Shown one piece after another: positions 1 to 27,603 of a DNA stretch of 27,603 nucleotides. The notes under the pieces were generated by a model. The model had not been told where the DNA came from and searched no databases. It was given only the letters and a program-made list of their open reading frames with translations. The stretch comes from an uncultured Thermotogae bacterium (GTDB taxonomy: Bacteria; Bipolaricaulota; Bipolaricaulia; CAYUCE01), in assembly GCA_964443275.1 (NCBI GenBank), contig CAYUCE010000022.1:1-27603 (forward strand). The letters are read 5' to 3'. The position numbers were made by a program, and so were the translations under genes. Within the stretch, counting starts at the first letter, position 1, and each line of letters opens with the position of its first letter.

Positions 1-117
1 ATGTTTCATTAGCACTGGAATTCTCAATAACATCGATTGTTTTCTGGTAGCGGAAGGCTAAAGCCTTCCGCTACCTCGGCTATAACTTGCGTCCCTTTAT
101 AAACAAGAAGCTCAATA
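1..117. repeat. Copy 1 (short variant) of a multi-copy intergenic repeat element: conserved core (1-55) + perfect 13-bp-stem hairpin GTAGCGGAAGGCT-aa-AGCCTTCCGCTAC (47-74) + tail CCTCGGCTATAACTTGCGTCC (74-94) ... AAGCTCAATA (108-117)
   Basis: Core matches 4773-4827 at about 52/55 nt. Tail matches 4961-4982 and 4995-5004. The 133-bp middle module of copy 2 is replaced here by a short hairpin. Truncated by the window edge. Confidence 0.75.
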
Positions 118-2689: not shown

Positions 2690-3488
2690 ATGGATATTTT
2701 AAAAAGATCACAAGCCCCCTATACCGGCTGAAGCTTGGGATTTTATTGACGAAGAAGCCCGGGAAGTTCTAGAAGTAGAGTTGGTAGGAAGGACAGTGGT
2801 TGACTTTATAGGCCCCCAAGGCTTAGATAAATCCGCAGTTAATACTGGAAGAATTAAGAGACTAGGCCAAGGGGCAGTAGAGGGGGTAACTTATTGTCTG
2901 CGGGAGTCCCTACCTATGGTGGAAATTAAAGTGCCCTTCCGGATAAAGCTAAGTGAGATAGAAGCCCTGGCCCGGGGAGCGGCTGATGTGGATACAGATC
3001 CATTAATCGAAGCTTCCTTAAAAATAGCCCAGGCCGAAGACGAGATAATTTTCAATGGGCTAGAGGAAGCAAATATCAAGGGTATAGCAGTTGAAGCCGC
3101 GGAGTCTGCCTACGGAGTCTCCGATAAAGACGGGTTTATGCCGGCGGTTGTTCAAGGTATAAGCGGTTTCAAAAAAGCGGGAGTAGGAGGGCCTTATTCG
3201 CTTCTATTGGGACCGGAGATGTATGCATCTTTGTTTAAATCAACGGGAAGAGGTTATCCAGAAGAAAAAAGACTAAATGAGATTTTAGAAGGAAATATTA
3301 TCCGGGTACCAACCCTTGAATCCAGAGGACTTCTAATTTCCACTCGGGGCGGGGACTTCGAGCTGTTTGGAGGACAGGACCTCTCCGTGGGATTTTCCCA
3401 TTGGAAAGAAGACGAGATAGAATTCTTTTTGTACGAGTCCCTCACCTTTAGAATAAATACCCCCGAGGCTGCTCTGATTCTAACTTAA
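2690..3488 (+). CDS. Family-1 encapsulin shell protein (HK97-fold, linocin M18-like). The reading frame needs a +1 shift at the C5 run 2715-2719, so this is a frameshift, a sequencing error or a pseudogene.
   Basis: ATG at 2690 gives MDILKRSQAP, then TGA at 2729. The next frame gives ...IPAEAWDFIDEEAREVLEVELVGRTVVDF...GGDFELFGGQDLSVGF...PEAALILT. Joined, this matches the conserved encapsulin N-terminus (MxxLKRxxAPxxxxxWxxIDxxAR) and C-terminus. The RBS GGAGGAGG lies within the EncFtn 3' end. Confidence 0.85.
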
Positions 3489-4476: not shown

Positions 4477-4534
4477 GTTCATCTATCATTATATTAACCC
4501 AGGGAAGGATTTACCATTTTTTAGTGTACCACTT

Positions 4535-4560
4535 GGAGGAAGAGAAAATTTTCTTCCTCC
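4535..4560. terminator. Stable hairpin GGAGGAAGA-gaaaattt-TCTTCCTCC in the convergent intergenic region. Possible bidirectional terminator, weak because there is no clean U-tract.
   Basis: 9-bp perfect stem read directly. T-run upstream (4516-4522) but none downstream. Confidence 0.3.
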
Positions 4561-4616
4561 AACAAACGCTGTGCCGCCCCAGTATTATTGAGCTTTTCGA
4601 TCACTAAAGAAACAAA

Positions 4617-4757
4617 AGATCGATCATGGATGTTATATTCTCGTACTTCGCTTCTTCGAAGCTCTCTGCTTCGCAAGCCTCTACTACGCTCCTTCGTAGC
4701 TTCGTAGAAGCGGAGAAGAGGTCGTAGAAGCGGAGAAGAGTAGGCAGTTTTGTTATG
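4617..4757. repeat. Array of about 22-bp imperfect palindromic repeat units in direct and inverted orientation, part of the multi-copy repeat element. Units: u1 4652-4672, B 4673-4688, u2 4689-4710, u3 (inverted) 4709-4730, u4 (inverted) 4731-4750.
   Basis: u1 CGTACTTCGCTTCTTCGAAGC is similar to u2 CTCTACTACGCTCCTTCGTAGC. The reverse complement of u3 is CTCTTCTCCGCTTCTACGAAGC. The same A-B-(inverted A) module recurs at 27540-27603. A tandem 20-mer GTAGAAGCGGAGAAGAG occurs twice. Confidence 0.75.
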
Positions 4758-4772
4758 CTTGTATGTTTTATT

Positions 4773-5004
4773 AGCACTGGAATTCTCAATAACATCGATT
4801 GTTTCCTGGTAGCGGAACCTCTACTATGCTTCTTCGAAGCTACGTAGAAGCGAAGAAGAGCCTTCAGGGTTCCACCCTTATATGGGATGCCCAAATAAAA
4901 ACCATGGAACCTTGCGCCATCCGCTACGAAAAACCACTTCCCTGGAACTTCCTCGGCTATAACTTGCGTTCCACAAGATCCAAAAAGCTCAATACACTGA
5001 GGCA
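4773..5004. repeat. Copy 2 (long variant) of the multi-copy repeat element: core 4773-4827; palindromic unit pair u5/u6 4829-4870 centred on AGCT; GGGTTCCACCC segment 4871-4887; TCCGCTACGAAAAAC 4931-4945; tail CCTCGGCTATAACTTGCGTTCC 4961-4982 ... AAGCTCAATA 4995-5004
   Basis: Aligns with 1-117. The pair differ by a 133-bp internal module versus the short hairpin in copy 1. Segments recur, partly inverted, at 27461-27493. Confidence 0.75.
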
Positions 5005-5034
5005 GTGTAATTACAGTTAAGTCACTTGCCGAAT

Positions 5035-5877
5035 CTAGTCGGTGAATCCCCACCTGGCCGGATCAAAATTAGGCAAACTTTCCGGTTCGAAAACGGAGTC
5101 GGGAATTTCACCCTCCGGGCGTATGCGCTTCTGAAAGGTGATAGTAGTTGAGCTTTCTTCCAAAACATTTTTGTTTATCATTTTATCAATTACTAACTTC
5201 CCTTCGAACTCTCCCAAAGCAAGCACTTCCACAACTCTCTCCAGGTTTTTTGCTTTGTTGTAGTACTCGGACTTTAAATCAAGCCAAGTGTCTTTGCTGA
5301 CCCACATCTTCCCGGTTGGATAATCGGCATCCGCACCCGGTTTGGCAGTAAGTTTTAGCACATAGCAAGGCATCTGTTTTCCCTGGATTTCCAGGGTTTC
5401 CTGACCGGAAAGCTCTGCTTTGTAATCATCCATTCTACTGCGCTCACCTATATCCTCATAAGAGAAGGTACTTCCGGCAAAGCTCTGTTTTCTTTGTTGT
5501 TCTGATTCCAGTTTCTTGAGTTGATCGACGGTAGGGGCGTAAACCCAAATATCTGCATCTCCTTGTTCAGGGGTTATGGCCAAAAACAAAAAGCCCTTTG
5601 GTTTAAGAAAGTAAATGAGCATTTTGTCGGGTCCTTCTTCGACATTTTTACCCAGACTTCTGAAACTGGTCTTGCTGGTAGTGCCGTCAGAATACTTATC
5701 CTCAAATTGAATGTAGTTAATCAAACTTCCCGACATTATCTCTTCGTCTCTATCTTCGACTTTTTGTAAAATCTGATCTCCGGTAAGCTGATTTTTTGAG
5801 TAGGTCAAATTACCGACCGTAAAACAGCCCATAAGTAGGAGCATAAATATTACTGCTCCGTAACTAGCTCTTCTCAT
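5035..5877 (-). CDS. LolA-like outer-membrane lipoprotein-sorting protein family (putative lipoprotein), partner of the MMPL transporter
   Basis: Signal peptide with a lipobox-like LLMGC. Size and beta-rich composition are consistent with LolA_like/DUF1571 proteins that flank MMPL/RND genes. The start overlaps the MMPL stop by 14 nt. Confidence 0.6.
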   Translation of the reverse strand: MRRASYGAVIFMLLLMGCFTVGNLTYSKNQLTGDQILQKVEDRDEEIMSGSLINYIQFEDKYSDGTTSKTSFRSLGKNVEEGPDKMLIYFLKPKGFLFLAITPEQGDADIWVYAPTVDQLKKLESEQQRKQSFAGSTFSYEDIGERSRMDDYKAELSGQETLEIQGKQMPCYVLKLTAKPGADADYPTGKMWVSKDTWLDLKSEYYNKAKNLERVVEVLALGEFEGKLVIDKMINKNVLEESSTTITFQKRIRPEGEIPDSVFEPESLPNFDPARWGFTD

Positions 5878-22168: not shown

Positions 22169-22274
22169 GGAATGACACCGAGGCCATCCCCTACATCTGG
22201 CCTATCATAAAAACGTAGAAACATGCCGGAATGACACCGAGGCCATTGTCTACATCTGGCATATCATAAAAACG
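22169..22274. repeat. Two 47-bp direct repeats (22169-22215 and 22228-22274, period 59 bp): GGAATGACACCGAGGCCAT[CCCC/TGTC]TACATCTGGC[C/A]TATCATAAAAACG
   Basis: About 42/47 identity. Each contains an internal inverted repeat (AGGCCA...TGGCCT) and a TATCAT -10-like hexamer. Lies in the 256-bp intergenic region upstream of 22385. Confidence 0.7.
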
Positions 22275-22384: not shown

Positions 22385-22936
22385 GTGGGATTCTGGGATA
22401 AGCCGTTAATAATTGCGTTAGCAGTTCTGGTTTTAACCTTAGGTAATTTCTATATTGGGGAGAGGATAACTACCGGGGTGGTGATCTTTTTATTTATTAT
22501 CTATTATTTGTACAGAGAAAAGGAAGGTTTTAGAAGACAACTGGCGGTAAGGAATCTAATGGGGCTTCTGCCGGGAAATTTGCTGCTGCTGCTTGGAATT
22601 TCGACCATGGAAACTCGCCGGGCTTACCTACTTTGGATTTGGCTGGCTATGGTTTTTGGAATTGTTGTTTTTGATCTTTTGGCTAACAAGGACAGGATAG
22701 ATTCATCTTTATCCAAAGCTTTGTTAGGGGGGGGTTATCTATTTATCTGGTCGAGTATCTTTTTTTTAATTTATATGTGGATAATTATGGGTGGAAAAGT
22801 TTCTCCGGAAATTAAAGCTTACTTGGCCTGGGGGATTATTGTGGGAGGCGCAGTATTTTTATCCATTGGTATCTACCGGTTCACTCATCTAAAACTATCC
22901 ACAGGAGGAAGAGAAGTTGAATGCGAGAGGAACTAG
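22385..22936 (+). CDS. Hypothetical integral membrane protein (about 5 TM)
   Basis: Hydrophobic 183-aa ORF. GTG start preceded by AAGGGA. No recognisable family. Confidence 0.5.
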   Translation: MGFWDKPLIIALAVLVLTLGNFYIGERITTGVVIFLFIIYYLYREKEGFRRQLAVRNLMGLLPGNLLLLLGISTMETRRAYLLWIWLAMVFGIVVFDLLANKDRIDSSLSKALLGGGYLFIWSSIFFLIYMWIIMGGKVSPEIKAYLAWGIIVGGAVFLSIGIYRFTHLKLSTGGREVECERN

Positions 22937-27295: not shown

Positions 27296-27460
27296 ATGAT
27301 GTGTATATGTAACCTAATTTACAAAATTATAAACTAAAACTGTTACTTTAATATATAAGCGAAATTCTAAAGTATTGCGCCTTATTCGGAACCTTCACAT
27401 TGTTGTTTATTGTAGCAGGCTTTAGCCATCATTATGTATACATTTAACCCTCCCAGATAG

Positions 27461-27603
27461 GGTGGAACCCTGAAGGGTTCCGCTACGAAAAACAAACGAT
27501 GTTAATAAGATTACCCCGCAACCAGATGGGTAGAGGATGCTCTACTACGCTACTTCGTAGCTCTCTGCTTCGCAAGCTTCGCAGAAGCGTAGAAGAGGTC
27601 GTA
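27461..27603. repeat. Third, partial copy of the repeat element, cut by the window end: hairpin GGAACCC-tgaa-GGGTTCC (27464-27481), TCCGCTACGAAAAAC (27479-27493), units u7 27540-27561, B 27562-27577, u8 (inverted) 27576-27597, then GTCGTA
   Basis: u7/B/u8 match the 4652-4750 array. 27461-27477 is the reverse complement of 4871-4887. TCCGCTACGAAAAAC matches 4931-4945. Confidence 0.75.

Follow-up and report, generated by a model that had tools for sequence, protein, structure and literature searches.

GTAG-headed hairpins and a 42-nt palindrome in a composite intergenic repeat family of an uncultured Bipolaricaulota bacterium

The window analysed here is a complete contig of 27,603 nt (CAYUCE010000022.1) from an uncultured bacterium of the phylum Bipolaricaulota. 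Three gene-free regions of this contig, at 1-117 (copy A), about 4576-5004 (copy B) and about 27397-27603 (copy C), share modules that recur far beyond chance. Copy A holds the start of the contig and copy C its end. The regions very probably represent a family of non-autonomous palindromic repeats, which is made from two building blocks, an arm with GTAG-headed hairpins and a palindrome of 42 nt. The fuller statement is slightly favoured by us, namely that the family is a lineage-specific, non-autonomous mosaic similar to repetitive extragenic palindromes (REP) and bacterial interspersed mosaic elements (BIME) and would be mobilised in trans by a HUH enzyme. A composite repeat family in gene-free intergenic DNA had been proposed in a preliminary description of this DNA, and the proposal is supported by the present analysis.

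Arms, hairpins and arrays of the three copies

The recurrence of a core, a tail and palindromic units was confirmed. The 55-nt core at 1-55 is 96% identical to 4763-4817 (E = 4e-18), and the tail at 71-117 is 81% identical to 4948-4994 (E = 1e-8). The palindromic array units were found at 4644-4740, 4818-4860 and 27539-27597. A pattern made for the array unit gave three matches on the window against 0.00 expected. The motif GTAGCGGAW gave six matches in the window against 0.21 expected, and five of them are inside the three repeat regions. As had been described, the 558-nt gap at 4477-5034, in which copy B is located, has no credible gene. The sole long open reading frame (ORF) of the gap (4604-5053, minus strand, 149 aa) showed no homologue among 5.8 billion proteins. 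In addition, the reading frame of the core differs between its two copies, and so does that of the tail. A protein-coding remnant is ruled out by these frame differences together with the absence of homologues. An array of clustered regularly interspaced short palindromic repeats (CRISPR) or a simple tandem repeat was rejected, because only short local duplications are present. A sequencing adapter or vector was rejected as well, since copy B is internal and the modules occur in independent assemblies.

The anatomy of the arms was obtained from an all-against-all comparison and a five-way arm alignment. The all-against-all comparison supported the earlier view that large indels and inversions of sub-modules distinguish the copies. 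The basic arm is composed of a core, a central pair of opposed GTAG-headed hairpins and a tail. The 3' part of the core, AACATCGATTGTTTTCTG, immediately precedes GTAG, and the tail ends in GCTCAA (..AAAGCTCAA), followed by TA. The mean column identity of the five-arm alignment is 41%, so the arms are strongly diverged. Such an alignment had been suggested for defining the ends of the element and any target duplication. A right end, AAAGCTCAAT, was found in common to the five arms, but the insertion junction is ambiguous and no duplication was demonstrated.

Copy A represents a forward arm that is truncated upstream by the contig start. Its core (1-46, plus strand) is cut by the contig start, is 96% identical to 4763-4817 and carries the same 3' part before the GTAG head. 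The hairpin H1 at 47-74 is a perfect palindrome, GTAG-CGGAAGGCT-AA-AGCCTTCCG-CTAC, with a DNA fold of -16.4 kcal/mol and z = -8.3. It consists of GTAG, a 9-bp stem and a 2-nt loop, and the GTAG tag is present on both strands, with GTAGCGGAA at 47 (plus) and 74 (minus). H1 is the opposed hairpin pair collapsed into one palindrome. The tail follows at 75-117 (plus strand, 81% identical to 4948-4994) and ends in ..AAGCTCAA, then TA.

Copy B is the complete copy. Its start had been placed at 4617, and its actual extent is about 4576-5004. It starts with a short inverted arm at 4576-4640, continues with an array at 4641-4747 and finishes with a long forward arm at 4763-5004. The tails of the two arms are directed outward. 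According to the arm alignment, the left arm (minus strand) is short and hairpin-less, and contains the inverted 3' part of the core and the tail end. It is 85% identical to an element end of a sister species (contig L010, 13-65) and gives an apparent left terminal inverted repeat. The array (plus strand) is made of X and Y half-units and ends in TAGGCAG. Within it are one complete 42-nt palindrome (4679-4720) and a tandem duplication of 20 nt (4702-4740). The right arm begins with the core at 4763-4808 (plus strand, 96% match to the copy A core). The GTAG head with the first bases of a second hairpin type, H2 (GTAGCGGAAC), follows at 4809-4818 (plus strand) and is cut off from the remaining H2 by a nested 42-mer. 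The segment at 4861-4935 contains the remaining H2 (CCTTCAGGGTTCCACCCT), an inner GGTTCCA/TGGAACC hairpin and an opposed GTAG head. This opposed head is located on the minus strand at 4919-4927, within TCCGCTACGAAAAAC at 4921-4935. The TCCGCTACGAAAAAC box, previously listed as a module of its own, is the reverse complement of the core 3' end plus the GTAG hairpin head. The tail and the right terminal inverted repeat occupy 4948-5004 (plus strand, 81% identical to the copy A tail), where the tail end is followed by TA CACTG. The two ends of copy B are inverted repeats (4576-4597 versus 4983-5003, 86% over 22 nt). Because inverted arms with outward tails surround a central array, the whole copy B can form one long hairpin, and its fold has z = -5.8.

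Copy C begins near 27397 rather than at 27461 as described before, and its left limit is uncertain within 27372-27400. Its order is the same as in copy B, an inverted arm and then an array. The left arm (27397-27515, minus strand) is composed of an inverted, diverged core (17-69 of copy A versus 27515-27464, 75%) and an intact H2 facing a degenerate GTAG hairpin. The head of H2 is GTAG at 27486 (minus), and the degenerate hairpin, GTAGCAGGCTTTAGCC, is at 27412 (plus). Together with their 5' extensions, the two heads form a long paired hairpin (z = -4.0). The array, an X-M-Y palindrome at 27537-27603 (plus strand), is cut by the contig end and has a fold of -15.7 kcal/mol with z = -3.3. It is 87% identical to the copy B array (27537-27580 versus 4637-4681) and 77% identical to 4664-4726. 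Inverted matches also connect copies B and C, namely an exact match of 18 nt (4861-4878 versus 27459-27476) and an 83% match (4861-4896 versus 27476-27442).

The second hairpin type H2 is GTAG-C-GGAACCCT-TC-AGGGTTCC, with an 8-bp stem and a 2-nt loop. The inner stems of H1 and H2 differ by two double changes in which pairing is kept (GGCT/AGCC versus CCCT/AGGG). The opposed GTAG heads are at 47/74 in copy A, 4809/4927 in copy B (119 nt apart) and 27412/27486 in copy C. Between the heads of copy B there are H2, other small hairpins and the nested palindrome. Five tagged heads occur in three intergenic regions of one 27.6-kb contig. A palindrome of the H1 design with another stem was also observed in a related Bipolaricaulota contig (L007), whose LolA-like protein is 67% identical. 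This perfect double-tagged palindrome, GTAG-AAATGCCCCGG-TTCCG-CCGGGGCATTT-CTAC, is located at 872-908, 24 nt past the stop codon.

The 42-nt palindrome and its occurrence in a foreign contig

The arrays had been described as runs of palindromic units of about 22 bp. These units turned out to be the two half-arms, X (CTCTACTACGCTCCTTCGTAGC) and Y (TTCGTAGAAGCGGAGAAGAG), of one 42-nt imperfect palindrome with conserved A-A mismatches. The 42-mer reads CTCTACTAYGCTYCTTCGWAGCTWCGTAGAAGCGRAGAAGAG. In the 42-mer alignment, 92.5% of the cells are paired, versus at most 63% in a slid register. Two G-T pairs (G-U in RNA) are found on one strand.

The nested unit inside H2 of copy B, CTCTACTATGCTTCTTCGAAGCTACGTAGAAGCGAAGAAGAG (4819-4860, plus strand), is a hairpin-forming 42-nt palindrome. 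When exactly these 42 nt are excised, the sequence becomes GTAGCGGAACCCTTCAGGGTTCCACCCT, which agrees exactly over 28 nt with the intact hairpin of copy C. Since the excision restores an intact hairpin, a precise insertion without target duplication is indicated, and the ambiguity is at most one C. No common tetra- or pentanucleotide was found 5' of the units (..GGAAC, ..CAAGC, ..GGATG, ..GCCGG and ..TCCTA), a comparison based on only about five junctions.

The same unit was found with a degenerate array-unit pattern in a JGI contig, Ga0209427_10181822 (L009), which has 27-31% GC and a glycosyltransferase-like gene. In this contig, one 42-mer (39/42 to the consensus) is nested in inverted orientation at the exact centre of another 42-mer (40/42). 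The nested pair is flanked by CCTGCCGG and CAGGCAGG, and the nested unit is likewise without target duplication. The identity between 1550-1592 of L009 and 4819-4861 of the window is 95% over 43 nt, and the copy B array is about 70% identical to the same contig over 104-125 nt. Therefore, the unit exists in a compositionally unrelated organism. The pair is part of a 680-nt non-coding stretch (1100-1777) with three successive strong hairpins, at 1347-1396, 1422-1499 and 1516-1616 (36-56% GC). This suggests that the organism of L009 carries a comparable palindrome mosaic. The overall result shows that the 42-mer behaves as a discrete insertion, makes up arrays and inserts into hairpins, including its own copies. 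The further idea, that it is among the smallest discrete mobile DNA units and is horizontally shared between a 44% GC Bipolaricaulota and a 27-31% GC organism, is considered unlikely.

Distribution among relatives and setting on the contig

The closest relative, a sister species, was available from Logan (SRR11308169 and SRR11308170), with a LolA-like protein 85% identical to that of the window. The filled and empty sites were compared by an explicit single-deletion search, as a global MAFFT alignment and a free-gap aligner were misleading. The sister species aligns with both flanks of copy B and is without the element. The window has 406-411 extra nucleotides at this site (about 408, at about 4576-4988). 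The junction is ambiguous by about 10 nt, and the right limit is at 4984-4988 within a few nucleotides. At site A, next to a syntenic gene (70% identical), the sister species has a short-form arm in which its contig starts. This arm shares 85% identity with the left arm of copy B and is oriented like the copy A tail. Because site A is filled in both species and site B is polymorphic, the family is common to at least two species.

In two more distant Bipolaricaulota (L012 and L013-L020; protein about 53-54% identical, 60-65% GC), no member was found in about 45 kb, and the contigs L011, L021 and L022 contained no family member either. Scans with exact 22-mers and 20-mers of the core gave no match in the GTDB species representatives, the JGI metagenomes or IMG/VR. 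The JGI metagenomes are almost without the family, the lone match being L009 through the array-unit pattern. Viral contigs were scanned with the array unit, the X half-unit, hairpin H2 and the tail, and no match was obtained. BLASTN of copy B against plasmid and phage collections also gave no match.

Two further segments of the gap were compared among these relatives. The 27 nt right after the stop codon of the LolA-like gene (GATTYGGCAAGTGACTTAACTGTAAYTA; window 5008-5034, minus strand) are nearly unchanged in L005 (4231-4257) and L008 (1250-1276). The LolA-like proteins of these homologues are only 85% and 61% identical, and the L008 contig ends exactly at this segment. A conserved 3' element is one possible reading, the terminus of another repeat a second one. 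The other segment, 4502-4559, matches 4335-4393 of L005 over 58 nt with 83% identity, and is inverted relative to the LolA-like gene in the sister species. It contains a hairpin, GGAGGAAGA-GAAAATTT-TCTTCCTCC. The inversion could have occurred at the palindrome, or the segment could be another small mobile module.

The contig ends inside copies A and C can be explained by the breaking of short-read assembly at multi-copy sequences. In both this species and the sister species, Logan contigs likewise stop in or beside family modules. A total of tens to hundreds of copies per genome, as had been extrapolated from the density on the contig, is hinted at only by these breaks. An assembly artefact with collapsed or chimeric contig ends had been named as one finding that would overturn the family, and it is not the case, because parts of copies A and B are present in independent assemblies. 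The Logan assemblies, which are independent and come from two sequencing runs, match the window at 26-226 and 4965-5034 at 100%. Therefore, the repeat region is not a chimera. The location of two of the three copies at contig ends could be taken as a sign of such an artefact. However, copy B lies within the contig, and the sequence on either side of it matches the sister species. Related modules were also seen in other samples (the sister species and the JGI contig), and contig ends in repeats are expected when a multi-copy family is assembled from short reads. An artefact is thus extremely improbable.

The contig has about 44% GC and carries housekeeping genes, such as those for IMPDH, SecD/SecF, RecJ, MgtE, HflK/C and encapsulin. 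A gene for an MMPL transporter is paired with the gene for its LolA-like partner. The named homologues of the LolA-like protein are from metagenome-assembled genomes (MAGs) of Candidatus Bipolaricaulota/Acetothermia. When the neighbouring MMPL protein was used as a query against the GTDB species representatives, only a 22% identical match was obtained, and no close relative was found among them. Four gaps between genes exceed 200 nt, and the family fills three of them. All copies are intergenic. Copy B lies between convergent genes, copy C lies beyond the 3' end of a gene, and copy A is upstream of a promoter-like site of the gene at 227-949.

Several other observations were made on the contig. 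The 240-aa protein of gene 227-949 matches no Pfam family. Its closest named homologues (59-65% identical) are in many cases from MSBL1 archaea and Halodesulfurarchaeum, and in others from Chloroflexi and Dehalococcoidia MAGs. This hints at sharing of the gene between domains and perhaps at a hypersaline anoxic habitat. An encapsulin shell gene is present at 2781-3488 (Linocin_M18, E = 4e-64) and is preceded by a 120-aa ORF at 2325-2687, which could be the encapsulin cargo. A direct repeat of 47 nt (22169-22215 and 22228-22274; 91% identical, 59-nt period) is found within a 256-nt gap upstream of the gene at 22385-22936. It has no relation to the repeat family and might represent a duplicated operator or regulatory site.

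Known repeat systems, competing explanations and significance

For comparison with REP, BIME and REP doublets forming hairpins (REPIN), the descriptions of Di Nocera et al. 2013 (PMC3733652), Corneloup et al. 2021 (PMC8266576) and Bertels and Rainey 2011 (PMC3116915) were used. A GTAG-tagged REP is an extragenic palindrome of 20-50 nt preceded by GTAG, with stems of 6-13 bp and short loops. Such REPs occur as opposed pairs 20-100 nt apart, as head-to-head dimers and in mosaic clusters (PMC3733652, PMC8266576). The hairpins of the window are also small GTAG-tagged palindromes, with 9-bp (H1) and 8-bp (H2) stems and 2-nt loops. They are extragenic and often between convergent genes, and their stem variants keep pairing. 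Their opposed pairs, 28-119 nt apart, form larger folds and clusters of several motifs, as REP dimers and BIMEs do. On the other hand, a conserved core of 46 nt and tail of 43 nt, both non-palindromic, surround the hairpins of the window, and the arrays are dominated by a second palindrome, the 42-mer, which is untagged. The host, an uncultivated Bipolaricaulota, is also unlike the described REP hosts. Some REP dimers are known to lie inside conserved carrier sequences (PMC3733652). Of the four kinds that had been considered for this family, namely REP/BIME, miniature inverted-repeat transposable elements (MITE), IS200/IS605-derived palindrome-associated transposable elements (PATE) and structured non-coding RNA, the REP/BIME-like option fits best, because tagged hairpins are arranged in opposed pairs within a palindrome mosaic. 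A non-coding RNA gene is without support, and the suggested check against Rfam gave no family match.

REP processing is carried out on folded single strands by GTAG-requiring HUH tyrosine transposases, and the related IS200/IS605 elements move via folded single-stranded DNA (PMC8266576). How REPs spread is still an open question (PMC8266576). We propose that a HUH tyrosine transposase of the RAYT or TnpA(IS200/IS605) type, encoded in trans, would copy and paste the palindromes of the window in the form of folded single-stranded DNA. Clusters would grow through repeated insertion into existing hairpins and through local duplication or inversion. Effects on the host, such as stabilisation of mRNA 3' ends or termination between convergent genes, would be secondary. 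Under this proposal, the GTAG tags, the dependence on hairpins and the duplication-free insertion would all be consequences of HUH transposition, and we infer the enzyme purely from such features.

IS200/IS605-type transposition leaves no target duplication, the ends of these elements are asymmetric, and the right-end cleavage site of IS608 is TCAA. Hairpin-dependent single-strand transposition, as in the PATEs, would explain the exact 42-nt insertions, which are likewise free of duplications. The arm end ..TCAA is identical to the IS608 cleavage tetranucleotide, although this may be coincidence. Unlike IS200/IS605, no conserved target tetra- or pentanucleotide is present 5' of the insertions here, the complete copy B has inverted arms, and no tnpA or tnpB was seen within the window. 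A likeness to the small dispersed repeats (SDR) of Nostoc punctiforme was also considered. These cyanobacterial repeats of 21-27 nt were reportedly described by Elhai et al. in 2008 (Genome Res 18:1484). SDRs are discrete insertions, nested in one another and in hairpins, and patchy between genomes. The units here are also below 50 nt, discrete, nested in each other and in hairpins, and patchily distributed between genomes. However, the 42-mer is an imperfect palindrome, and there is no sequence relationship with the SDRs.

Several findings weigh against a REP/BIME-like mosaic mobilised by a HUH enzyme. The core and the tail are non-palindromic, which is atypical of plain REPs. A GTAG hairpin is missing from the short left arm of copy B, and the 42-mer has internal GTAGs and no terminal unpaired GTAG tag. 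No transposase-like gene of any kind was found within the 27.6-kb window. Covariation in the 42-mer was not significant, with five sequences and no statistical power, and the palindrome itself was confirmed. The evidence base comprises three copies on one contig, one fragment of a sister species and one foreign contig. Finally, the 22-nt terminal inverted repeats of copy B and the TA after four of the five arm ends also fit a MITE with terminal inverted repeats (TIR).

According to this last explanation, which we regard as unlikely, the composite of about 410 nt (TTGAGCTTTT...AAAAGCTCAA) would be a foldback or TIR-type MITE moved by a TA-duplicating DDE transposase (e.g. IS630/Tc1-like), and the palindromes would be passengers. 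The mobilising insertion sequence (IS) would then have ends matching TTGAGCTTTTCGATC. Bacterial MITEs that duplicate TA, such as Correia/NEMIS of Neisseria and the IS630-derived RUP, are 100-450 nt long. Copy B resembles them in its terminal inverted repeats, intergenic location, size, fold-back structure and possible TA flanks. The terminal repeats pair in the fold, and the composite is missing from the sister species as a single block. Moreover, when the reconstructed site, CAGTAT-TA-CACTGAGGCAG, is aligned by hand with CAGCATCTATACCGGAGCAG of the sister species, the result is compatible with TA duplication. However, the best-scoring split of the ambiguous junction needs no TA duplication, and in the sister species the nucleotides after the arm are TG instead of TA. 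Copy B also has arms of very unequal length (about 58 versus about 232 nt), and searches of the plasmid and phage collections gave no matching IS. Unlike in Correia/NEMIS and RUP, the interior is a mosaic of GTAG hairpins and nested palindromes, with no similarity to annotated elements. The exact, duplication-free 42-nt insertions fit HUH chemistry and do not fit a DDE transposase, and the opposed GTAG hairpins would be left unexplained.

It is quite unlikely that the copies are functional RNA or cis-regulatory elements under selection, such as 3'-UTR stabilisers, factor-independent terminators or small RNAs. The positions of copy B between convergent genes and of copy C past a gene 3' end, the stable hairpins and the two G-U pairs on one strand of the 42-mer agree with such a role. 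Transcription of GTAG REPs is frequent, and they can function as RNA elements (PMC3733652). However, no Rfam 15 match at the gathering threshold was found in the window. A permissive Rfam search of the three regions and L009 returned only generic hairpins, mostly microRNA-precursor models, far below the threshold. Inside the copies, neither terminator-like T-runs nor a promoter pattern is present. Both orientations of the modules occur within one copy without a consistent orientation relative to genes, and the hairpins are disrupted by nested insertions. In addition, site B is empty in the sister species despite conserved flanking genes, and copy A is upstream of the promoter-like site. Local generation of palindromes by template switching, slippage or gene conversion at hairpins, together with decayed IS or gene remnants and no current mobility, is very unlikely. 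The 20-nt tandem duplication, the sub-module inversions, the strong divergence of the arms (41%) and a hairpin segment of 60 nt inverted between the two species point to such processes. On the other hand, they cannot put a 96%-identical 55-nt core 4.7 kb apart or a 93-95% identical 42-mer into an unrelated organism of 27-31% GC, and they cannot yield exact 42-nt insertions whose removal restores the target.

The repeat family is new, and its kind, REP/BIME-like mosaic repeats, is well known. Therefore, its general interest is modest, as it is otherwise an ordinary selfish or structural repeat and no new biological system. No publication was found in the literature on repeats in Bipolaricaulota. 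REPIN-RAYT systems have been described as strictly vertically inherited, and no RAYT gene was seen in the window. If the 42-mer were horizontally shared, its spread would contrast with this inheritance, and it would imply either a broadly transferred dedicated HUH enzyme or the use of a conserved host function. The exact, duplication-free nesting and the near-identical 42-mer in a compositionally unrelated organism offer a clean natural test case for the spread of tiny palindromic repeats. The sequences can be used in practice as strain markers and as flags for assembly breakpoints. Since contigs end inside repeat copies, the repeats explain the fragmentation of such MAGs. The family would be the first described repeat family of Bipolaricaulota (Acetothermia), a phylum known only from metagenomes.

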